Virus record (IMG/VR): IMGVR_UViG_2778261638_000008
Direction: 5' to 3' (one strand)
Source: a virus
Taxonomy: Duplodnaviria > Heunggongvirae > Uroviricota > Caudoviricetes
Length of the DNA: 40,222 nt
The position numbers and the translations under genes were made by a program. Below the pieces are notes generated by a model. The model was given only the letters and a program-made list of their open reading frames with translations, was not told where the DNA came from and did not search any database. Positions 1-11,453 of this stretch are shown piece after piece (the stretch's first letter is position 1; every line of letters begins with the position of its first letter).

Positions 1-480
1 ATTTGTATCAAAAATAGTTACGGCAGGATGATTAAAACAGATAGAGTGTTTAGGTTTAAGTAAATGTAGTGTTTGCAATCTGGTTATCGCTGTGTTATCA
101 AAATTTGAGAAGTCAACAACAAGATCTACATTCAGTTTTTTTATCTTTGCTTTTAGTTCGTTAAATTTATTTTTCTCGTAAGAAATAAAGGCATCCACGC
201 CAACAATATCAGTAAAGAGGAATGATACTCTTGGAGGTGCTATCACATATACCACCATACCGGATTCTTGAAGTTGTTTAATAAACCCTGAGGTAACGAT
301 GCCGTCACCAATGGCCTGCATGTGCATGAAAATGCACACTGTTTTATAACTATCCGGCTGTAATGATGTTTTCCTTCTGTATCGCATTTTTAGAAATGCC
401 AGTCTGGCCTTCGTCTTTATCTTTTTTGTTTTAATATTTCGCTGTCTGTTAAGCTGTTTTAATGATGAAATAACATTCAT
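1..480 (-). CDS. Partial CDS (N-terminal 160 codons, continues past window start): glycosyltransferase-like, resembles N-terminal region of GT9 heptosyltransferases
   Basis: Open frame on minus strand from ATG at 480-478 to window edge; not in ORF track because it has no stop inside the window. Motif VCIFMHMQAIGDGIVTSGFIKQL resembles the GT9 N-terminal Rossmann-like motif. Visibly AT-rich versus the adjacent tail genes. Confidence 0.4.
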   Translation of the reverse strand, partial: MNVISSLKQLNRQRNIKTKKIKTKARLAFLKMRYRRKTSLQPDSYKTVCIFMHMQAIGDGIVTSGFIKQLQESGMVVYVIAPPRVSFLFTDIVGVDAFISYEKNKFNELKAKIKKLNVDLVVDFSNFDNTAITRLQTLHLLKPKHSICFNHPAVTIFDTN

Positions 481-574
481 AATGGTACCCTGAAATTCCA
501 AATCACACATGTCATCCGAAATGAGCAGGGTACTATACAAAAAACTGGACTACAATGGTTTGAAATGAAAGCCT

Positions 575-1174
575 TTATGCTTGTTTACTCCTTGATTCCA
601 CTGGGGAAGCTGGCCACTCAATATCCGGTGCTCTTGATGTATCAACACGGTTCAGCAGCACTCGATACTTCTTCCATGCCACCAGTAACGATGTTTCTTC
701 CTCTGTTGCAATATTCAAATCTACGGCATCTTGAAGTGGCGAAATATGCTCACTGGCTACCTGCATGAGGCTGTTTTTTGTTTCTTCCGCCTCCCGGATC
801 CGGAACAGTTTTTCTGCTTCCGTATCCTTCACCCAGGCTGTGCCGTTCCACTTCTGAAACTCCCCTTCCGGCGATAACCAGGTAACATTTTCCGGTAACG
901 GACCGAGTTCAGAAATAAATAACGCGTCCCCTGATGCCACGTCATAAACTGTTTTACCCCGATGGTCTTCAACAAGATGCCACGATGCCTCATCACTGTT
1001 GAAAATAGCCACGAAGCCAGCTGGAATATCTGGCGGAGCAATATCAGTACTATTTGCAGGTAGACCTGTATGAGGTGGAATGTATGCATCACCTTCACCA
1101 ATAAATTCATTGGTTCCGACCAGCAGATTATAAATTTTTATGGTTCGTGGTTGTTCACTCATTCTGAATGCCAT
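575..1174 (-). CDS. Phage tail fibre assembly protein (Tfa-like chaperone)
   Basis: 199 aa immediately downstream of the tail fibre gene with overlapping stop/start; composition and position typical of Tfa chaperones. Confidence 0.7.
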
Positions 1175-2220
1175 TATGCAAGCCTCACAATATAGTTAAA
1201 TGCGATGTTTTTTACGGTGTTTTCCGCGTTGCCATAAGCGGCAATGGTAATGGTGTGTGTGTGCGAACCAATAGCGAGCGTATGTGTATGCGCACCTATT
1301 GCTACTGTGTGAGTATGAGCTCCTGCGCGTAATACGCGATTACTTGCTGTCTTGCTTGTGTTAGTTGCATGCATTCCACCACCGGTACCGGGAGTTTCTG
1401 CGTATGCTGAAGTATTGTTGTAAGCAAAGTTGTGTGTATGTACCCCGGTGTTATTCGTGGATTTAGTGCCGTAATCAAACGACGATGTGGTTTTCGTCCC
1501 CAAATCCGTACTGGATGCGCTGGCGCTGTGGGTGTGCGATTTAATGCCGTCCTGTTCCTGAGACAATACGGCCCGACCACTGGCAGGTTTGCCCTTAATC
1601 GTCCAGCCACGCATATCAGGGATCACGCCTGACGGATAAGCGGCTGCAAGTTTCGGGTATGCAGATTTGTCAAAAGTCTGCCCCTGCATAATGGCATAGC
1701 CAGACGGAACGGTATCTGATGGCCAAGGGACTGGAGCACCGACAGGAAAAGTTGAATTATCTTCCAGACCAAGATATTTAATAACTTCTGTAACAGAGTT
1801 TTTTGCCAAAATATCTCGCCCAACCTGTGTCAGGTCAGTCAAATTAGCAGTATCTTGATTGGTAAAATACGGTAATTTGTTTGCGGATGTTGAAAGACTG
1901 GCAAGTGCAGTAAGTGTGGCATCAATTGCCTGATAATTTTTATCTAATGCAGAAGATATTTTAGTGACAAATCCAGTCAGGTCCCCATCATCATGTACAT
2001 CAAGTCCGCTTTTATCTGCTGTATATTGTGCTATCGCTGCCGCAATAAAGCTGGCCTGCCGAATAACCTTATTGACTTGCGCACTGGATGCTTTCCCTGC
2101 TGTAAATCCAGATAAAAGCGCAGGCAACGCTTCCCATTCCTCCTGCGACATAACATTGGCATTTTTACCCGTTGCAAACGCTTTAAAGTCATTTTTCGCC
2201 ATCAGAGTAATACTCCCCAT
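1174..2220 (-). CDS. Phage tail fibre protein
   Basis: 348 aa; C-terminal repeated G(A/S)HTHT motifs typical of enterobacterial side tail fibre tips; followed by Tfa gene. Confidence 0.75.
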
Positions 2221-2882
2221 GCTCCTACATCAAAACCACTGATGAATTCGTTATCCATATCAAAACCAAAAAATTTTGAGCCTTCCGATGGGGTTTCCAC
2301 CGAAGGTGTTTCAATGCCACCCGCCCATACCCCGGCGGCTTTTACTGTGAGATACCCCTGTTTAATTGCAGCAATTAACTCACGCGATACATCTGAAATA
2401 TCAGTATCAGGAAAGACCCAGACCGATATCGTCATGTCCTGGTTATCGACTATCTGCATTCGCAGCCCGGATCCTGCTGTTGCAGCGTCAAGAATTGCCG
2501 GAAGCGAATCATTCCGTCCATCCCAGTTATTAATCGCAATCTTCGCTTTAAGAATGACACGATAAGTTTCATCGCTGAGGTACATGTATCCGGAATCAGG
2601 ATCGTATGGTCCCTGCCATACCCCCTGATCATATCCAAGCCCGTCGGTATCCCAGCTGAAATAGACACCTGAGATAGGCTGGCTGACAACACGGCTGCGT
2701 CCGATCCACAATCCAAGAATGTCAAGTTGCACACCAACCGCAGAGTCAATATCAAATGCAGTAATCAGCCCTCTGGTGGCAGCCGCAACATCAATAAGTG
2801 GCCGGGTCATCAGATCAACATGCGCAAGAAATTTAGGTTTGGTGGCGTGGTAGTTCGTGATTAGTTCGGTGTATTTGCTCAT
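2202..2882 (-). CDS. Phage tail/baseplate protein (gpI / YmfQ-like)
   Basis: 226 aa between baseplate J-like gene and tail fibre gene; position-based call. Confidence 0.45.
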
Positions 2883-4078
2883 AACTCCACCGTTATAACG
2901 ATATTTTCCGGGGTACAGGACGCAGATTCGTTGTATCTGATATCAATGTTTGATGACGACAAAGCCCCCGGGGATTTCCCAATCGTCAGTTCCTGAATAT
3001 CGTAATAGCGTACATTCCCGCCACTCACCACGCCAAGATTCGCCGGTGAGTAAATGCGACTTAAAAGGACCGAATCACCAATCATCAGACTATTGATATA
3101 GTCGGAAATAGCCTGCTGGATCTGCTGCCCTATCTGTGAGGTATAACCCGTAAAAACTTTTAATTTAATCCGGGCATAAACAGGCACATCACTGGAACGC
3201 GAGAATTTGATTACATGGGGATTGCCGTATTTATCCGGAACCGTAACGGATGTTGTACCGTGAGTGGCTGTCCCCTGGCCTTTATTTCCTCTGATAGCCT
3301 GAGCAATATCCGTCACATCACCGCCATCCACAATTACAGCAACAGAGTGTGGCGGTAACCCGTTACCGTCCTCCGAACCAGTATCGTTTTCATAGAGTTT
3401 GTGGCGGGTTACACCGGTAACATTATAAACAGCACCATCCAGTGCTTCAAATGGGGTTATTGATGGCAACGCAACACTTTGCGACTGGCGGATACGTAAC
3501 TCCGCATCAGTTTCTGCTGGAGTGCCTACAGTAGCTGCAGCAGGATTGGTTACCGAAACCCAGCCACGGGTTGGCGTATTAATTTCAGTGATAGTTCCAG
3601 CCAGCGCCGCCACTGCACCACTGACGGAACATTTTGCGGTCACCATCACTGTACCATCCACGCCGACCACCACTGAAGCAGGCAAACGCCATATCACATT
3701 ATTACTGTCTTTCACGCTGCCATTAATGATGGTTGTTCCGGCAGTTCCTGTAAGAAGCAAATCAACCGTAGAATTCGTCGCGCCTTTACGTGAAATACCA
3801 TTTATTTTCACGTTACTGGTCAGTGCAGCCCCATAGCCGGTTGCCGGTGAAAAACAGTTGTAGACAGTTATCGCCATATTATTGGCATCATGAATCGCCA
3901 GCGCCATCAGAGCCACCATCTGGCCGTCTTTGCTGTCCGGTTCCAGATAAGCGTCACTGCCGTAAATCTGCTGGAAATAGCTTGCCAGGGTATCGAGTAT
4001 CGTCTGGTAATCAGGCGCGCTGATCCCCTCAGCGGTTACCGTTGCCGATAAGCCGAGTGTATCCAAATTGAGGGCCAT
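2879..4078 (-). CDS. Baseplate J-like protein
   Basis: 399 aa; size and position (between gpW-like and gpI-like genes) match baseplate wedge J family. Confidence 0.6.
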   Translation of the reverse strand: MALNLDTLGLSATVTAEGISAPDYQTILDTLASYFQQIYGSDAYLEPDSKDGQMVALMALAIHDANNMAITVYNCFSPATGYGAALTSNVKINGISRKGATNSTVDLLLTGTAGTTIINGSVKDSNNVIWRLPASVVVGVDGTVMVTAKCSVSGAVAALAGTITEINTPTRGWVSVTNPAAATVGTPAETDAELRIRQSQSVALPSITPFEALDGAVYNVTGVTRHKLYENDTGSEDGNGLPPHSVAVIVDGGDVTDIAQAIRGNKGQGTATHGTTSVTVPDKYGNPHVIKFSRSSDVPVYARIKLKVFTGYTSQIGQQIQQAISDYINSLMIGDSVLLSRIYSPANLGVVSGGNVRYYDIQELTIGKSPGALSSSNIDIRYNESASCTPENIVITVEL

Positions 4079-4432
4079 TTATGCCTCGCTGGTTACTGTC
4101 GTTGTTCCGTAGATAGTGTCGATCTCAGCGAAGAACTGGACGCGGCGCGTCGTCGTGTTCACTGTCGTATTGAAAGAGAGGATTGATTTAACGCCCCGCG
4201 TTTCGAGGATGCGCTTACGGATCGCCAGGTTGTAGGTTTCCTGCTTCTGCTTACCGAGTACGGACTGGATCCACGGAGTCCCCTCGGTGGTGTCGAGAAA
4301 CCATTGCCCATACCACAATTCGAATCGCGTTTTTACCGCCTGCGCCACGGCCTCCGGTGAGTTAATCAGCCAGGTGTCATCACCGCTGCCAAAGGTGTAA
4401 TCGCCATCGGCGTCTTCACGTCTGTATCGCAT
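4079..4432 (-). CDS. Baseplate protein (gpW / gp25-like)
   Basis: 117 aa; overlapping start/stop with flanking baseplate genes. Confidence 0.45.
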   Translation of the reverse strand: MRYRREDADGDYTFGSGDDTWLINSPEAVAQAVKTRFELWYGQWFLDTTEGTPWIQSVLGKQKQETYNLAIRKRILETRGVKSILSFNTTVNTTTRRVQFFAEIDTIYGTTTVTSEA

Positions 4433-5184
4433 CAGTTTACTCCGTCGGTATTGCCTCCACCGCGCTGAACACCACCATGAGTGTGTGTATCATCGATTGG
4501 CTTGCCGTTAGCCTTCACGCTCCCCAAAAACTCAACAGCCCCAGTGATTTTTGAAGCCACACCAGAAACCACAGACCCCACCATGCCCCCCATCCAGGTT
4601 AACAGGCCATGAATGGTTACTTTCTCAGAAAAATCAGCCAGAGGGGCAACCACATCAAGACCACCCGGAGCGACAATTTTAATTTTCTGAGTGGAAGGGT
4701 TGAGCTCAAAGAACGTACTTCCGTCGTCGCTACGGAGCTGCGCGGCCCCCGTGCTTATTCCGCTGATTTTCTGCGTCTGCGACTGTGGCCCTACGATACA
4801 GAATGCATCTGATAAATCATGCACCCGGTCGTCGACAGGCTCCTGCACTCCGCCGTTCTGCCACCAGAAATCGATGCAGCGATCGGCGAAAATTACCAGA
4901 CATTCATCACCAGTTTTAACCGGGAACGTTAGCGTGCAGCCTCCGCCGCGCGGAAATACCACCGGCACATCCACCAGCAGCGGGTAATTTTTGGTAATGC
5001 GGTTCCCGTCGTTATCAGTTTCAACCGAACGGACAGCAGGCTGCACAACCGCCGTAACCGCGTCAGGGTCGAATGACTGGACGATGCCAGGCAAAGCAAC
5101 ACGGATCTGGTTCTTTGTTGTGTCCCGCTCTGATTTGAATGTTTCGGCAAGGTCGCCGCTGCGGGTCTGGTCAGATACTGCCAT
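4432..5184 (-). CDS. Baseplate central spike / hub protein (gpV / Gp138-N-like)
   Basis: 250 aa, glycine-rich C terminus; good SD (GGAG) before ATG at 5184; position in baseplate block. Confidence 0.55.
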   Translation of the reverse strand: MAVSDQTRSGDLAETFKSERDTTKNQIRVALPGIVQSFDPDAVTAVVQPAVRSVETDNDGNRITKNYPLLVDVPVVFPRGGGCTLTFPVKTGDECLVIFADRCIDFWWQNGGVQEPVDDRVHDLSDAFCIVGPQSQTQKISGISTGAAQLRSDDGSTFFELNPSTQKIKIVAPGGLDVVAPLADFSEKVTIHGLLTWMGGMVGSVVSGVASKITGAVEFLGSVKANGKPIDDTHTHGGVQRGGGNTDGVN

Positions 5185-5202
5185 TTAGTAGGCTCCAGAA
5201 AG

Positions 5203-5226
5203 CAAAAAACCCGCCGGGTGGCGGGT
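5203..5226 (-). terminator. Rho-independent terminator ending the inserted 5245-6395 cassette
   Basis: On minus strand: 7-bp perfect GC-rich stem (ACCCGCC/GGCGGGU) with 4-nt loop followed by UUUUUU; lies between stop of 126-aa gene (5245) and start of spike gene (5184). Confidence 0.75.
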
Positions 5227-5244
5227 CTGTAAATAAACTTTTTG

Positions 5245-5625
5245 CTAAGCTACTTGGGATTTCATTTCTGCTATTTTGTCCAACATCTTGTTCACCACTG
5301 CAATAGATGAACTTGCTTCAGTTTGCAAAATAGTCTCTGTTAGATCGTAGTCCGCGCGCTTACGCTTCATTTTTTGCTGTTTGAGAACTGCCCCCAACTG
5401 GATAAGAGACATTAACTCATAAGGTTCATCCTTCCGCCTTGCATCCGAAATAAGATATTGAACAACTCCATCATGTGTTGTCGGCGGGCAACACGTCAAA
5501 AGGCCACATGTTTCATGGTAGAACGCATAGTATGCCCGTGAAATAGCACTTCTGAAACCAGACTCAATACCAGTGTCTAAACATGCACGGGATGCGCCAA
5601 TGAACTCTTTTCCTTGGATACTCAT
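5245..5625 (-). CDS. Hypothetical 126-aa protein with HEPN-like motifs (second gene of inserted cassette)
   Basis: ATG overlaps stop of upstream gene (ATGA). AT-rich. Segments RAYYAFYHE, TTHDGVVQYL and RKRADYD resemble the helix 1, conserved His and C-terminal R-x-x-x-Y signatures of HEPN domains (from memory, unverified). Confidence 0.6.
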   Translation of the reverse strand: MSIQGKEFIGASRACLDTGIESGFRSAISRAYYAFYHETCGLLTCCPPTTHDGVVQYLISDARRKDEPYELMSLIQLGAVLKQQKMKRKRADYDLTETILQTEASSSIAVVNKMLDKIAEMKSQVA

Positions 5626-6395
5626 ATCGTGAAGTGAATCTCCTGCCGATTACGCCCGCGGAACCAGGCCGTCACATTCTTTCCAGCGAAGATCTCATTC
5701 ATTGCAATTTCAGTAGCAACGTCAATATCCATATCGGAAAGCATATCGGCATCCTCACATAAAACATCACAAACTATGCCAGCATCCCCATCCGGGCTTG
5801 TGACATAGTCATGAGAAATAGCTAAAACACCATAATTCTTAGCGACATTAGTAATTGTTCTGGAAAGAAGATTTATCTCATTCGTGCTTAAATCAGTCAC
5901 ACTTATGAATGTATCTAATGCCCGTTTTTTTTCCATGATATCTGACTCCATGCTTTCTCGCTCGCTCTCACTTCCGATCATAGACAGAGCTTTTCGAGCA
6001 AAAAAGAGTGATAGTTCACCATCGCCGTCAGCATAGGCTGCATTCCTTGCTCGTATGCACAAAGCAAGGCTGGTAATTTCCCGAGCTAACCTCACAGCCT
6101 CTTCTCGGTACAATTCATACTGTCCAGTATGACTGAGGTAAGAAAGATAATTTCTAGCTACTGTTTCGTCACGGTATGCAACTGCCTCCTGAAAAAAACC
6201 GACAGCTTCAACATGTTGATGCGCAGCTCCATAAGCCAGAGCCAACACCATCAACTTAACTGGCTCATCAGGGATTTTGCCTGCTTCAGAGACAACTCGC
6301 TTTAGCGTAAAAGCATCCAGTTGCTGCCCTTCATCAATACGTGAAGTAAGCATCTCAAGCGTTTCATTCAGTTTGCTATACAGTGCAAGTGACAT
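5622..6395 (-). CDS. Hypothetical 257-aa protein (first gene of inserted cassette), acidic C-terminal half
   Basis: SD GGAGG 7 nt upstream of ATG at 6395; AT-rich; translationally coupled to the downstream 126-aa gene; no recognisable catalytic motif. Confidence 0.65.
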   Translation of the reverse strand: MSLALYSKLNETLEMLTSRIDEGQQLDAFTLKRVVSEAGKIPDEPVKLMVLALAYGAAHQHVEAVGFFQEAVAYRDETVARNYLSYLSHTGQYELYREEAVRLAREITSLALCIRARNAAYADGDGELSLFFARKALSMIGSESERESMESDIMEKKRALDTFISVTDLSTNEINLLSRTITNVAKNYGVLAISHDYVTSPDGDAGIVCDVLCEDADMLSDMDIDVATEIAMNEIFAGKNVTAWFRGRNRQEIHFTI

Positions 6396-6536
6396 TAATC
6401 ATCCTCCATAACGGAGGAATTTATCATCGGAAGGCATCATCAACAACCTGTTGTTTTATTCATTAATCCATATTCTAGACTAATGCTTTGCTCTTTTCTA
6501 AGGAGAGAAAGGAGAACTGGTTAAAATTTCTTACTC

Positions 6537-6878
6537 TCACCCAGCCACTTTTTTACAAGGGAAAGACCCGATGATTTTCGGCGCGTCCATGCTGTTCTGC
6601 AGCAGCTGGACGTTCAGGAAACGCTTTTCGGTACCAGGGCGACGAATGTATTCAAAGCCGTAGTTGTTACCGTCTTTGGCAGGCATAAGCCCCATGTCTA
6701 CTTTCAAACCATTGGTACCCAGCTCGGTGATTTTTTGAGAGGTAACTCTTTCACCGTTGATTGTCGATAACTCGCCCTGGTTTGCAACCATAGTGTAGCC
6801 ACCGCATTTAACCGTAAAGCCATCCGCCCACGCGCTGCACGCAGAAAAGACAGCTAACAGAAAAATAATACCCCTCAT
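6537..6878 (-). CDS. Small secreted/periplasmic protein (113 aa) with Sec-type signal peptide
   Basis: N terminus MRGIIFLLAVFSACSAWA = basic n-region, hydrophobic core, AWA cleavage motif; sits directly after baseplate hub gene. Confidence 0.55.
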   Translation of the reverse strand: MRGIIFLLAVFSACSAWADGFTVKCGGYTMVANQGELSTINGERVTSQKITELGTNGLKVDMGLMPAKDGNNYGFEYIRRPGTEKRFLNVQLLQNSMDAPKIIGSFPCKKVAG

Positions 6879-6881
6879 TGC

Positions 6882-7943
6882 TCATCCCCTTTGCTGCGCT
6901 GAGGACGAAAGTAAATCCGCCGCACCACGCGCTTCGCACATCATATCCATGTACCACGCCTGGCCCCTTGTGTCGCCAGTGTACATAATCCCGCGCACAA
7001 TATAAACGCCATCCGTTGCGATGCTGGCAGGCTGCGCCGTGGTGCCGCTGAGCGTGATATTTCCGTCCGTGTTCTGGTCGGTGATCTGCCCACCGGCCAT
7101 CGCGATATCGTTGCTCGACAGTGCGGTGCGATATACGGAAGCCTGATCAAGCTGAATGAGCCCGTTAACCCGGATGTTCGGATTAATCAGCGCGCGGACG
7201 TTTACGCCGTTACCGATAGTCTGCTGCGGCATGCCAATAAGCCCGGTAGCGCTGTTGAGCACAATCGCTTCGTGAACATATTCGTTATTCGCCACCATCT
7301 GGCGCTGACCGTCCACGAATTGCCATGTTGCGCCACATTGCCCGGCTACGTTATCCATAAGATGCCGCGTCATGCCAAAGAGTACCCGCCCCCGGGGGAA
7401 TACAGTAGCAGGCATTTCAGGCGTCAGACCTTCAGTCGCGCCTTTGGCCTCGAAGTCTTTCATCAGCGCGCGATTCACGTCTGCGACCGTATAACCGGCC
7501 GCCAGCGTCTGCGAAGTTATGCTGGTGGCAAAAGCCAGATCCGTATCGGCTGCCTGAATCAGAACGTAAGAATCAATGGGGCTGTCTTTTCCTGTTACCG
7601 AGTAACGAATTTCGCCGCTGAAAATCATCCCATAGTTGCGGCCATCACCCTGGCCCACATCCGCCGCGTCGACTTCCCGCACGGTCCCGACGTCGCTGGC
7701 CGATACCTCCGGCGCGATACCGTCGTAACCCGCAATCAGACGCACTTTCAAAAACTCCTGCCCGGTGATTCGGTTCACAGTATCTGCCGAGAGGTTATAA
7801 ATTTTGATAGTCCCTATCCGGGACGCACTGCTGATGTTGAACCAGTCGATCGTAAAGGTGACTTTAAAATCACTTAGCTCAATTCCCTGACCGTTCCCGT
7901 CCACAAGCTGCAGCTCGAAATGTCTCATCCAGTTCTGTGACAT
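6882..7943 (-). CDS. Phage baseplate hub / tail protein
   Basis: 353 aa, in tail block downstream of tape measure; position-based. Confidence 0.5.
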   Translation of the reverse strand: MSQNWMRHFELQLVDGNGQGIELSDFKVTFTIDWFNISSASRIGTIKIYNLSADTVNRITGQEFLKVRLIAGYDGIAPEVSASDVGTVREVDAADVGQGDGRNYGMIFSGEIRYSVTGKDSPIDSYVLIQAADTDLAFATSITSQTLAAGYTVADVNRALMKDFEAKGATEGLTPEMPATVFPRGRVLFGMTRHLMDNVAGQCGATWQFVDGQRQMVANNEYVHEAIVLNSATGLIGMPQQTIGNGVNVRALINPNIRVNGLIQLDQASVYRTALSSNDIAMAGGQITDQNTDGNITLSGTTAQPASIATDGVYIVRGIMYTGDTRGQAWYMDMMCEARGAADLLSSSAQQRG

Positions 7944-7945
7944 GC

Positions 7946-8248
7946 TTACTCCGTTGATACCAGTAAATGACTGCGACCGCCCAGGTCAGTTTTCGTGGGA
8001 TAATCCTGTGTGTTGTCATCGCAGACCACCAACAGCTTAAAACCAAGCCCCATACAGGCGTACTGCGCCAGCAGATCAGCGCCAGTGACGAGAGGAATAC
8101 CGGAGATTACCGGCTCTCCTCTGTCGTTCTGCAGGTCCATAATCCAGTAAGGATCTCGCCATATGATGCTAATCCGCCAGGTGGCACCACCCAGGACGAT
8201 GCTGAACTGCTGGTTGTCCGCTGTCAGCGGAATTTCCTGAATTGTCAT
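7946..8248 (-). CDS. Phage tail protein (hypothetical)
   Basis: 100 aa with tight spacing in tail block. Confidence 0.45.
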   Translation of the reverse strand: MTIQEIPLTADNQQFSIVLGGATWRISIIWRDPYWIMDLQNDRGEPVISGIPLVTGADLLAQYACMGLGFKLLVVCDDNTQDYPTKTDLGGRSHLLVSTE

Positions 8249-8835
8249 TAGCCGCCCCCCAGTAACGACGCCACGTTACCCGTGATGCTTTTCAGCAGTG
8301 AAGTATCTGGAGGCTTTGTGGTTTTGTTGCCGCTGTTCTGTACCGCCGACGTGCTGGCCCCTTCCTTCATGTTGGTTTTATCCGCGACGGTAATCTGCTG
8401 TGTCCGGGAGATAAGGACCGCCCTCAGGGAGATGACGGCAGACAGGACGTTTTCGGTTGTCTTGTCCGTCGTCACTTCCAGCGCCCGGATCAACATGTTG
8501 CTGTACAGCCGTTTACCGGTTACCACATCGAAGGGGATACGGCTTTCCTGCAGATCCAGTAGCTCCTGATACGTCTGCTGAGGACTCAGGCCGAGCAGGC
8601 TGGTAGCCGTCAGGTTACTGGCAAAATCCAGCAATACGCCGCCACCGGCGAAACCAACCTCCATCACCACTTCTGACGGTTTTTTATAGGCATGATCAGC
8701 GACAGCGGCCCCGACCTCTACCGGATGCTCTGTTATTTCAAGCATATCTGTATGCTTCTCTGAAATAACAACACTGGGAACAATCATTCCTATTTTTCTG
8801 CTCTGCTGATGAAAAAGTGTAGAGAGAATATCCAC
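8248..8835 (-). CDS. Phage tail protein (hypothetical)
   Basis: 195 aa; start overlaps tape-measure stop. Confidence 0.45.
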   Translation of the reverse strand: MDILSTLFHQQSRKIGMIVPSVVISEKHTDMLEITEHPVEVGAAVADHAYKKPSEVVMEVGFAGGGVLLDFASNLTATSLLGLSPQQTYQELLDLQESRIPFDVVTGKRLYSNMLIRALEVTTDKTTENVLSAVISLRAVLISRTQQITVADKTNMKEGASTSAVQNSGNKTTKPPDTSLLKSITGNVASLLGGG

Positions 8836-10844
8836 TAACCCACCCTCACCTGATTACTTCGCATGACCTGAGCATTTGCAGACTGTTGCCGACGTGCAAC
8901 CTCATTACCGACAGCGTGCGGATCTCCGCCACCGTAAATGTGGTAGGTATTTTGCTGGTTAACCTCTGTCATTTTGCCACTAATTCCCGCCACGGCAGCC
9001 TTATTAATCAGCTCTCGGGAATAGATATTTCTTCCATTTTCATGCTGGATAATGCTGCTCATCAATGCTGACATGGTTTTCGGATCGCTCATATTCAGGG
9101 CAGCCCGGGGATCCACTCCCAGTCGTTGCGATACAGCCCTGATATACGCAGTTGTGTTGTTATTATCAGAGGCAGGTGCCCAGGTAGAGATAATTTTTTC
9201 CACACTGTTTATTCCTCGCCCGGCGTACAACATTAACTGACGAGCAAGAGCCCGTAATCCATCAAAGGCAGTTTCAAATCTGGCAAATCGCCCGCCCGGG
9301 TGTTCAAGAGAAGCCCCCGCTTGACCAGCAAAATTAAGGTTTCCCGGATTGTTATTCCGCTCTCCTCGTTTCGTAGCCTGTGCATGTTGTTCCGGCTCAT
9401 CATCACCAAACCAGCCGCGTACCGTCCGGCCCACACTGCGGGGATCGAATCCCCAGTGCTCTTTAATCCAGTCGGCAGTACTGTTAACGCTGTCTGTAAC
9501 CATCGGCATCGCTGACGGATTTTCGCTGCCCTGATTAAGTATCTGTTTGCCGATGCTGACGGCATCAGCCCAGCGTCCATCTTTGATAGCGTTGAGCAGG
9601 TCGGCGATCATGTTCAGCATTTTGCTGAATTCGCCCATCTGGTCGATGAAGTTGCTGAAATCCCACTTCAGGGACCATGATTTGGGGTCAATATTGAGTA
9701 GTTTCGCCAGCGCTTTCGCCAGATCGTTAACGGTCGTTTTAAGGTCACGAACCATCTTCAACGCGGCATCGACCTCCGGTTTCCACTTGCCCCAGTCAAT
9801 CAGGCTGTCGCCGCCTTCCTTCCAGGTCTGATAGTCCTCCCACAGGAGGGCAATCCCCGCCGCCAGCGCGGTAATGAGGCCAACCGGCGACATCCAGAAC
9901 GTACTGTTCAGAATGCGCAGCGCAATCGTCAGTGCGCCAAACAGCGAGATCAACTCCCGCGTTTGCTTATCCAGCGATTGCCACCAGGTGATGAGGCCTG
10001 ATGTCCCCTCAATCAGTCTGAAGAACAACCGCCCGATAATATCCCCGAGCGCCAGAATGCCTTTTATGGCTTTCGTCAGGGTCTGCTCGATACGAGGGAA
10101 GTTGTCCAGGATATGGCGGCGCAGGGTGTCCAGCGAACCTGCAAGCCCACCCGCAAGATTAGAGCCGATTTTGTCACGGGCCATGCCTGCCATCGCGCTA
10201 AACTCACGCAGGGAGGTCATAAATTTGTTGGAGCTTCTGGCCGCCTCGTCAGCATTGAAGCCGATAGCTTTCGCCATTGCGCTGTACTGCCCGGAGAAGC
10301 CACCCACACCCCGGCGCATCGCCATAAGGGTATTTTCGTCAATGCCCAGCATCTGCGCATACTGGTTAGCCCGGTAATACGGCATGCTGCTGAGTTTCTG
10401 TCCAACGCCCGTAAAGATAGCGGCCATGTCACGCATGTTACCGCTGGCATCACGGGTCTGTACGCCCAGGCGATTCAGAAATCCCTCCGCCCCGGGATTA
10501 TTACGAATAAACCGGGAGAGGTTTTCCAGAGAAGATCGCGCAGCGTCCACGCTGCCGCCAACCTGCGAAACCGCATAGCCAATAGACTGAATTCCCTGGA
10601 CTGTCGCGCCGGTGCGCTGTGACGCCCAGTAAAGATTATCCAGGCCGGAGGCGATCTTAGCCGTGAAGGCCACCACGGACAGCGCAGCTCCTTCAACGGC
10701 CAGCCCCATTTTGATGACATTTGCAGTTGTACCGGCGAGGACAGAACCGAACTTTTTCGCTCCTGCATCATCCACACTGAAGCCAAGCGAGACGAGGAAA
10801 TCTTTAATAGTTTCAGCGTTCATTATCCTCTCTCCATTTCTCAA
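8835..10844 (-). CDS. Tail tape measure protein
   Basis: 669 aa, long alpha-helical/Gly-Ala rich protein immediately after chaperone genes; true start may be the second ATG at 10823 (SD GGAGAGAGG upstream). Confidence 0.75.
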   Translation of the reverse strand: MRNGERIMNAETIKDFLVSLGFSVDDAGAKKFGSVLAGTTANVIKMGLAVEGAALSVVAFTAKIASGLDNLYWASQRTGATVQGIQSIGYAVSQVGGSVDAARSSLENLSRFIRNNPGAEGFLNRLGVQTRDASGNMRDMAAIFTGVGQKLSSMPYYRANQYAQMLGIDENTLMAMRRGVGGFSGQYSAMAKAIGFNADEAARSSNKFMTSLREFSAMAGMARDKIGSNLAGGLAGSLDTLRRHILDNFPRIEQTLTKAIKGILALGDIIGRLFFRLIEGTSGLITWWQSLDKQTRELISLFGALTIALRILNSTFWMSPVGLITALAAGIALLWEDYQTWKEGGDSLIDWGKWKPEVDAALKMVRDLKTTVNDLAKALAKLLNIDPKSWSLKWDFSNFIDQMGEFSKMLNMIADLLNAIKDGRWADAVSIGKQILNQGSENPSAMPMVTDSVNSTADWIKEHWGFDPRSVGRTVRGWFGDDEPEQHAQATKRGERNNNPGNLNFAGQAGASLEHPGGRFARFETAFDGLRALARQLMLYAGRGINSVEKIISTWAPASDNNNTTAYIRAVSQRLGVDPRAALNMSDPKTMSALMSSIIQHENGRNIYSRELINKAAVAGISGKMTEVNQQNTYHIYGGGDPHAVGNEVARRQQSANAQVMRSNQVRVG

Positions 10845-11000
10845 TGCGCCGCTGGTTATCCGCTTTTACCGCCAGATGGTCATTCAAGAGAGCAATGTCA
10901 TACAAATCGACAGAGCCATCTTTAAGTGCTGTATAGGGAATTAACCCGGCGTCAACCGGATTGAGAAGGTAGGACAGCCCGTCCGGCAGGCTGTTAAACG

Positions 11001-11453
11001 TCAGCCCTGTTGCAGGCTCTGCGTCGTGCTGGTAAGGGGTGTAGGCAAAAAATTTCCCAGCGAATCAGCGACCACCCGCGCCACCAGCTGCAGCATGACC
11101 AGCAAGTCAATATCATCAAACATCAGTTCGCCCTGGGTAAATACCGGCACCCATCCGTCCATATGACGCCGCGATACCACCGCAAGACAGGGATGAATAA
11201 TCGCATCGGTGTCATCTTCGGTCAGGGAAGACAGTTCCTCAGCGATACGCGGGAGCATGGTTTCAAACACCGGTTTTAACTGTTCGAATTTCACGGTGTC
11301 GATTTTGCCGTCAGCTGGCAAACGGGAGCGAATGCTCCCGAAATCTGACATCATTCCTGCCAGCACCGGCAGAAGTTTGCGGGTCACTTTCAGCTGGTCA
11401 AAAACGCTGAGTTTTGCCGTGCGATATTTCACGCCTTTAATTTCGAATTCCAT
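11001..11453 (-). CDS. Tail assembly chaperone (gpG-like), with -1 frameshift extension
   Basis: 150 aa between tail tube and tape measure; contains slippery heptamer G GGA AAT near its 3-prime end and an open -1 frame continuing to about 10812. Confidence 0.6.
   Translation of the reverse strand: MEFEIKGVKYRTAKLSVFDQLKVTRKLLPVLAGMMSDFGSIRSRLPADGKIDTVKFEQLKPVFETMLPRIAEELSSLTEDDTDAIIHPCLAVVSRRHMDGWVPVFTQGELMFDDIDLLVMLQLVARVVADSLGNFLPTPLTSTTQSLQQG
11052..11058 (-). other. Putative programmed -1 ribosomal frameshift slippery site (GGGAAAT) in tail chaperone gene
   Basis: Minus-strand heptamer G GGA AAT in zero frame; the -1 frame stays open for about 80 codons, ending with TGA overlapping the tape-measure start. 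Confidence 0.55.

Follow-up and report, generated by a model that had tools for sequence, protein, structure and literature searches.

A WaaU-like family 9 glycosyltransferase gene as prophage cargo beside tail fibre genes in Escherichia coli: a candidate for modification of the lipopolysaccharide core

The left end of the IMG/VR virus record IMGVR_UViG_2778261638_000008 (Caudoviricetes; 40,222 nucleotides, hereafter the window) cuts through an AT-rich reading frame located just beyond the tail genes, and raises the question of whether this frame is cargo of a prophage or part of the host chromosome, and what its product could do for a lysogen. A sequence-only reading had described a minus-strand frame with 160 visible codons, strongly AT-rich, lying about 90 bp past the last tail gene in a position typical for cargo, and resembling glycosyltransferases of family 9 (GT9). 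The descriptive part of this reading was borne out. Translation of the minus strand (positions 1–480) confirmed the ATG at 478–480, preceded by an in-frame stop 18 codons upstream and followed by 160 codons with no stop down to base 1; the GC content is 0.346 in positions 1–500 versus about 0.45–0.57 across the tail genes, and the spacer on the other side of the start codon measures 94 bp (481–574). Beyond the spacer, on the same strand, lie a gene for a 199-aa tail fibre assembly protein (575–1174; Pfam PF02413, Caudo_TAP, E 2.4e-44) and a 348-aa tail fibre gene in which Pfam recognises a Collar domain and a fibre repeat (1174–2220). Neither a consensus sigma-70 promoter nor an intrinsic terminator was detected in the spacer, in a scan that returned fewer sites overall than shuffled controls did; therefore, read-through from the tail operon into the glycosyltransferase gene is possible.

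The 160-residue fragment alone gave no match in a profile search against Pfam and NCBIfam, so that its GT9 likeness is not verifiable by profile search from the window only. Extension to the left, which the earlier reading had suggested, was achieved with public E. coli sequences. Three contigs were found by exact look-up of the window's fibre assembly protein; an exact look-up of its tail fibre protein gave no match, nor did an exact 60-mer scan of species-representative genomes. The E. coli contig L004 is 100.0% identical to window positions 1–11174 (11,174 bases) and continues further left, the part of the gene seen in the window corresponding to L004:10695–11174. In this contig the full gene comprises 1,179 bp and 392 codons, with a GC content of 0.339 (0.34 when rounded) versus 0.505 in the adjoining 10 kb, and the window holds the N-terminal, acceptor-binding half of the enzyme. 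The contig L006 (NMKE01000023.1, 66.6 kb) is also identical to the window and stops midway through the glycosyltransferase gene, one base past the window start. The start of the window is thus probably a cut at a contig end. Assemblies frequently break at insertion sequences or repeats, and in the source genome the gene may be interrupted or present as a second copy.

The left boundary of the prophage had been predicted to lie outside the window and to be recognisable by a direct repeat shared with a right junction at 39754–39961. A shared repeat did reveal attL, although not one located at those positions. Base-by-base comparison with the empty site placed an 18-bp core, AATTGTGATATGTGTGAA, at 39992–40009 inside yfhL (attR), and the same core is found at the left junction (L004:12456–12473), 1,281–1,298 bp left of the window start. 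The left boundary is thus indeed about 1.3 kb outside the window, while the stretch 39754–39961 is phage DNA and the right junction proposed earlier was off by about 30–250 bp. The glycosyltransferase gene lies 582 bp inside the attL core, between attL and the tail genes. The right attachment site is adjoined by the integrase gene (467 aa; 38350–39753, minus strand; Pfam PF00589), and the host gene yfhL, which encodes a 4Fe-4S ferredoxin according to the annotation of the empty site in strain K-12, occupies 39962–40222 on the plus strand. In E. coli genomes without the prophage, yfhH is joined directly to yfhL. Phage DNA supplies the first 10 codons of yfhL in place of those for MALLITKKCI (window 39962–40009; L004:12456–12530) together with the DNA upstream, so that an intact ferredoxin gene is rebuilt with a phage-derived start and promoter region. 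The phage itself is a myovirus whose relatives include vB_EcoM-606R2, Salmonella SEN34 and Yersinia YP3.

The full-length protein is a family 9 glycosyltransferase with a GT-B fold. This label is not new, since the RefSeq protein WP_001100987.1, with 98% identity, is already annotated as 'glycosyltransferase family 9 protein'. On this full-length relative, Pfam PF01075 scored 26.9 bits, above the gathering cut-off of 22, and the NCBIfam models for RfaQ and heptosyltransferase I gave weak scores with the full-length protein. An AlphaFold model, made from the sequence P0001, which is 96% identical to the one derived from L004, has a mean pLDDT of 90.3 and a pTM of 0.86; in it, a long helix at the N terminus precedes two Rossmann-like domains, and the tail is disordered from residue 368 onwards. 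A Foldseek search of the PDB with this model listed GT9 enzymes first, 3TOV and then WaaC and WaaF (E 3e-13 to 2e-10, TM 0.58–0.72), and the protein heptosyltransferase TibC with an E of 6e-6 and a TM of 0.47. The assignment to GT9 made from the fragment is thus upheld by the whole protein, and the possibility that it has no glycosyltransferase fold is contradicted by the model. A sequence search of PDB chains yielded only a match to hnRNP-L, which was dismissed as chance. The sole match in PHROGs was the unannotated family phrog_36326, and no PADLOC defence-system model matched at E values up to 1.

Within GT9, profile comparison identifies WaaU (RfaK), the outer-core heptosyltransferase IV of E. 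coli, as the closest characterised relative. An hhalign comparison of the family profile with K-12 WaaU gave a probability of 99.5% and an E of 4e-22, and the 307 aligned columns take in the basic helix at the N terminus; the probabilities for the other K-12 enzymes of the family were 90.8% (WaaQ), 77.6% (WaaC) and 18.8% (WaaF). The prophage enzyme shares with WaaU the GT-B fold, the basic helix preceding the strand that carries the 'GD' pair and a DTAxVH motif; however, the two are only about 21% identical, and WaaU is encoded in the waa core cluster, while the gene studied here is prophage cargo adjoining fibre genes.

The residues expected of an active heptosyltransferase are largely conserved. 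Essential residues of these enzymes include the catalytic Asp, D13 in HepI (PMC5713226), and in an alignment of 33 family members the pair G58-D59 is invariant and aligns with the GD of WaaC, WaaF, WaaQ and WaaU, D59 (window 304–306) occupying the column of HepI D13. A second criterion, the signature D(T/S)(G/A)XXH, represented by D261...H266 in HepI (PMC3559599), is fitted by D291-T-A-I-V-H296, encoded in the part of the gene outside the window, with D291 and H296 invariant. Given the conservation of D59 and of the DTAIVH motif, the enzyme looks catalytically competent. The HepI K192 column is occupied by an invariant Arg, R227; this lysine is not universal (PMC3559599), and its replacement means that the donor need not be ADP-heptose. 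The first 45 residues are very basic (LKxLNRxRNIKTKKIK...YRKK) and conserved across the alignment, which indicates that the ATG at window position 480 is the true start; the fragment present in the window thus spans both the conserved basic N-terminal helix (residues 3–33) and the catalytic G58-D59 (window 304–309). Two shorter versions of the protein were ruled out on this basis: a start at Met-52, implied by phrog_36326, whose profile begins at residue 52, is at odds with the conservation of the first 45 residues, which are found in WaaU as well, and the same applies to the shortened start in the RefSeq annotation of strain ECZP248 (339 aa).

The genomic contexts of homologues support a surface glycan as the target, since several of them reside in chromosomal LPS-core loci. 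In Serratia marcescens the core operon has the order rfaQ-rfaG-rfaP-waaB-waaO-rfaJ-[member]-waaA-coaD, the family member being the last gene of the waaQ operon, a position equivalent to that of waaU. In Gilliamella species the member adjoins WaaO/J-like and RfaQ-like genes, in Orbus it is found between two sulfatase-family genes, a WaaH-like GT2 and another GT9, and in Citrobacter sp. JGM124 and Schmidhempelia a WaaH-like GT2 adjoins it; one metagenomic member is located at the edge of an O-antigen-type cluster. Other members belong to phages. In Providencia stuartii, P. alcalifaciens and Providencia sp., E217-like prophages end with the gene, which comes after a fibre or fibre assembly gene; in P. 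alcalifaciens a hexapeptide acyltransferase gene converges on it. A P. rettgeri prophage with a Mu-type baseplate ends in the same way, and there a WaaH-like GT2 gene converges on the family member. P. rettgeri also has an orphan copy beside a yfhL homologue, adjoined by a truncated acyltransferase gene and without any phage. Across E. coli and Providencia, members are found directly behind fibre or assembly genes in myoviruses of three tail types, namely P2-like, SEN34/E217-like and Mu-like. The Mu-type copy stands apart from the E217-type copies on a neighbour-joining tree, which is rough and has no bootstrap values; this suggests that the gene was captured by phages at least twice.

The way in which the gene reached the window's phage can be traced in some detail. 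It belongs to a cassette of 2,833 bp that shares 96% identity with P2-like prophages integrated at the flk locus (blastn, L004 9435–12266 against L001 13740–10916); window positions 1–1740 on the minus strand are the part of the cassette within the window, including the 3' part of the tail fibre gene (1174–1740), and the remaining 1,092 bp lie to the left. The cassette encodes the fibre tip, the assembly protein and the glycosyltransferase, and also includes a dead 290-bp remnant of the 3' end of P2 gene U. The P2-like prophages have H and G (fibre assembly) followed by the glycosyltransferase gene and then by gene U in convergent orientation; the termination of the cassette in a dead U fragment shows that the transfer went from a P2-like phage to the window's phage. 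A remnant of an invertible fibre segment was considered as the source of the fragment annotated as 'phage tail protein' downstream and ruled out, as this fragment is the 3' end of P2 gene U. The convergent junction of U and the glycosyltransferase gene of P2-like prophages is preserved in the remnant beside the window's gene. In the P2-like carriers L001 (4363–11205), L002 and L008, the genes FI-FII-E-E'-T-U are located on the strand opposite to H-G and D, which we take to be an inversion relative to the P2 map; gene D in these prophages is annotated as 266 aa, yet a frame of 413 codons is open.

Sister prophages at yfhH/yfhL share the tail genes and a 170-bp arm adjoining attL, and the slot between them is filled with a hexapeptide acyltransferase gene, a fragment of a helix-turn-helix gene and a gene for a 215-residue protein without an assigned function; the acyltransferase, annotated as serine acetyltransferase, and the 215-aa protein occupy L003:6362–7943, L019:3328–4815 and L020:3332–4819. 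In a relative integrated elsewhere, the slot holds an invertible fibre segment with pinE. These alternative contents identify the slot after the fibre assembly gene as a variable cargo slot, in line with the earlier view of the position as one typical for cargo. In Providencia, the acyltransferase that accompanies the glycosyltransferase homologue shares 40% identity (E 4e-45) with that of the sister prophages, which hints at an ancestral two-enzyme module for decorating glycans. In a sister prophage of E. coli E62, a gene for a macro-domain protein is inserted between the tail fibre and fibre assembly genes (L019:5407–6309).

The gene is present, always on the chromosome, in 49 of 5,426 complete E. 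coli genomes, and 48 of these copies have the full length. The glycosyltransferase frame is whole even where IS903B or IS66 disrupts the yfhL prophage, as in strains L6-21 and FDAARGOS_943, and in L6-21 it is so beside a fibre assembly gene interrupted by a stop codon. Strain ECZP248 has the same junction, and its copy, annotated as 339 aa, aligns one base short. Pairwise dN/dS values between two E. coli lineages range from 0.16 to 0.43, calculated from small counts, and 10 of the 19 amino-acid differences between E. coli lineages fall in the disordered C-terminal tail. These values point to purifying selection on the gene instead of decay. A database search recovered 34 clusters, one of which is an E. 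coli cluster with 536 member sequences, the others representing several Providencia species, Orbus and metagenomic sequences at 40–58% identity; a profile search of 1.84 billion representatives yielded 118 clusters at E <= 1e-30 and 757 at E <= 1e-10. The gene is absent from deposited phage genomes, where only two Campylobacter phages gave matches, at 23% identity, and viral structure libraries contained only distant GT9-like proteins of uncultured phages.

Family 9 enzymes are peripheral proteins that act at the cytoplasmic face of the membrane and extend the core on lipid A before its export, and WaaU, itself barely studied, adds heptose to an outer-core hexose (PMC5713226). The likeness to WaaU suggests that the prophage enzyme most likely attaches a sugar to the core of its host. 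We consider it rather probable that the prophage carries, as cargo, a cytoplasmic, membrane-associated enzyme of the WaaU branch of GT9 that adds a core sugar and alters the outer core of the lysogen. The enzyme would most likely transfer one sugar, probably heptose from the ADP-heptose of the host, during core assembly on lipid A at the cytoplasmic side of the inner membrane, and the outer-core structure displayed by the lysogen would change as a result. The probable benefit would be to hide a receptor in the core from superinfecting phages or from re-adsorbing progeny, or else to alter a surface antigen. There is precedent in E. coli for the loss of phage adsorption through transferred LPS genes (PMC9519451). 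The data, all of them computational and comparative but consistent, are best explained by modification of the LPS core that serves lysogenic conversion or receptor masking, with donor, acceptor, expression and phenotype all inferred; the step from an LPS-core glycosyltransferase to lysogenic conversion or exclusion is itself an inference, and expression might occur late, in lysogeny, or both.

The alternatives to this reading differ in what they change. One of them leaves the family assignment untouched and denies the gene any role in the host: it would be an inert passenger that came along when the fibre tip and assembly gene were swapped with a P2-like phage. Such co-transfer of non-functional DNA did happen, as the dead 290-bp piece of gene U in the cassette demonstrates, and the missing promoter consensus upstream of the gene, as well as its rarity among complete E. 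coli genomes, would also suit a passenger. However, a passenger would hardly be expected to stay intact in nearly all carriers, including prophages degraded by insertion sequences, to show dN/dS values below 0.45, or to recur behind fibre genes in a different genus, in phage lineages that are unrelated, and we regard this explanation as improbable. About equally improbable, in our judgement, is a different surface glycan as the target (O-antigen, enterobacterial common antigen or capsule), or a donor other than heptose. The homologue at the edge of the O-antigen-type cluster and the pairing in Providencia with a hexapeptide acyltransferase or GT2, typical partners in the decoration of polysaccharides, would favour another glycan, and the Arg in the place of HepI K192 would favour another donor; on the other hand, the closest characterised relative is an outer-core enzyme, the Serratia homologue takes the last position of the waaQ core operon, and the heptosyltransferase signature is intact.

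Less probable still is a protein heptosyltransferase of the TibC/AAH kind, which would glycosylate the tail fibre of the phage or an adhesin of the host. Its appeal lies in the arrangement of the genes, with the glycosyltransferase directly downstream of the fibre and chaperone genes, on the same strand and with no terminator between them, and in the appearance of TibC among the fold matches. Yet that match is far worse than those to WaaC, WaaF and 3TOV, the 33-sequence alignment has no invariant Cys that could form the iron-finger, and the chromosomal homologues are located in LPS loci rather than beside autotransporters. The explanation with which the locus was first to be confronted, a host chromosomal gene outside the prophage, could draw on an AT-rich composition unlike that of the phage and on the phage-free orphan copy of P. 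rettgeri at the equivalent yfhL locus, but it is refuted by the mapping of the attachment sites: the gene is inside the att-bounded prophage, between attL and the tail genes, empty sites join yfhH directly to yfhL, and 5,377 of the 5,426 complete genomes lack the gene. We consider it to be practically out of the question.

Modification of the LPS by prophages is textbook knowledge for the O-antigen, and the core-modifying enzyme proposed here can be set against such known systems. Like gtrABC of P22 and Shigella phages and Oac of Sf6 and D3, the gene is temperate-phage cargo near a prophage end; however, gtrABC and Oac are membrane proteins that modify the O-antigen on the periplasmic side, while the prophage enzyme is a soluble GT-B protein predicted to modify the core from the cytoplasmic face. 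No GtrA/B/C or acyltransferase-3 genes were found between the fibre assembly gene and attL, where only the GT9 gene and the gene U remnant are located. Another point of comparison is T5 Llp, a receptor blocker encoded beside the receptor-binding gene. The linkage of a receptor-recognition gene to a receptor-masking gene is also seen with Cor of phi80 and N15 (PMC11436027), but Cor and Llp are small proteins that bind FhuA, while the prophage enzyme would act enzymatically on a glycolipid. The same review reports the proposal that the LPS alteration in gtrABC/Oac seroconversion blocks adsorption, and mentions no example of conversion at the level of the core (PMC11436027).

In P2 itself, the position after gene G is the non-essential fun(Z) slot with variable cargo, and the glycosyltransferase gene immediately after G in P2-like prophages corresponds to it, with the differences that the content is another one and that the FI-U operon is inverted in these prophages. 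The papers on P2 hotspots consulted here make no mention of glycosyltransferases, and we found no description in the literature of the subfamily, of a prophage-borne family 9 enzyme of the LPS core, or of its linkage to a fibre-tip cassette.

The occurrence of the gene beside fibre genes in several tail types allows a further, more tentative proposal, namely that the fibre tip, its chaperone and the WaaU-like enzyme travel as one mobile cassette among unrelated temperate myoviruses, and that the enzyme, by capping the outer core of the LPS with a sugar, masks the receptor recognised by the same fibre. It is possible but doubtful, and import together with the fibre tip is also compatible with pure hitch-hiking. 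If it holds, it would represent lysogenic conversion at the level of the core and in the cytoplasm, distinct from that of the O-antigen by gtr or Oac. The physical linkage of a fibre tip to a glycan gene also offers a simple rule by which more receptor-masking genes could be found in prophages. If the function of the enzyme itself is as we propose, about 1% of E. coli genomes, as well as several Providencia species, carry a switch of core structure delivered by phages. Many coliphages bind the LPS core, and such a switch could have a bearing on phage host range, phage-therapy cocktails, core typing schemes, and recognition by serum or antibodies.

Several other loci of the window deserve mention. 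Between the spike gene and the upstream baseplate genes, positions 5245–6395 on the minus strand hold two overlapping frames of 126 and 257 aa with a GC content of about 0.43, which matched only the unannotated families phrog_5176 and phrog_17809, and no Pfam or PADLOC model. Sister prophages have pairs of 243 and 142 or 243 and 140 aa at the same spot, or a single DUF4282 protein, which makes this region another variable slot, within the tail module. A stretch of the 126-aa protein, RAYYAFYH, resembles the Rx6H motif of HEPN type. Two AT-rich frames on the minus strand, at 32554–33084 and 36102–36722 (local GC of 0.37 and 0.36), run opposite to the surrounding replication genes; one of them has no family match, the other belongs to DUF6338, and both look like further cargo genes. 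The adjoining gene for a SNF2-type helicase (36744–38156) matches the DpdE and ZorD defence models by its helicase domain only.
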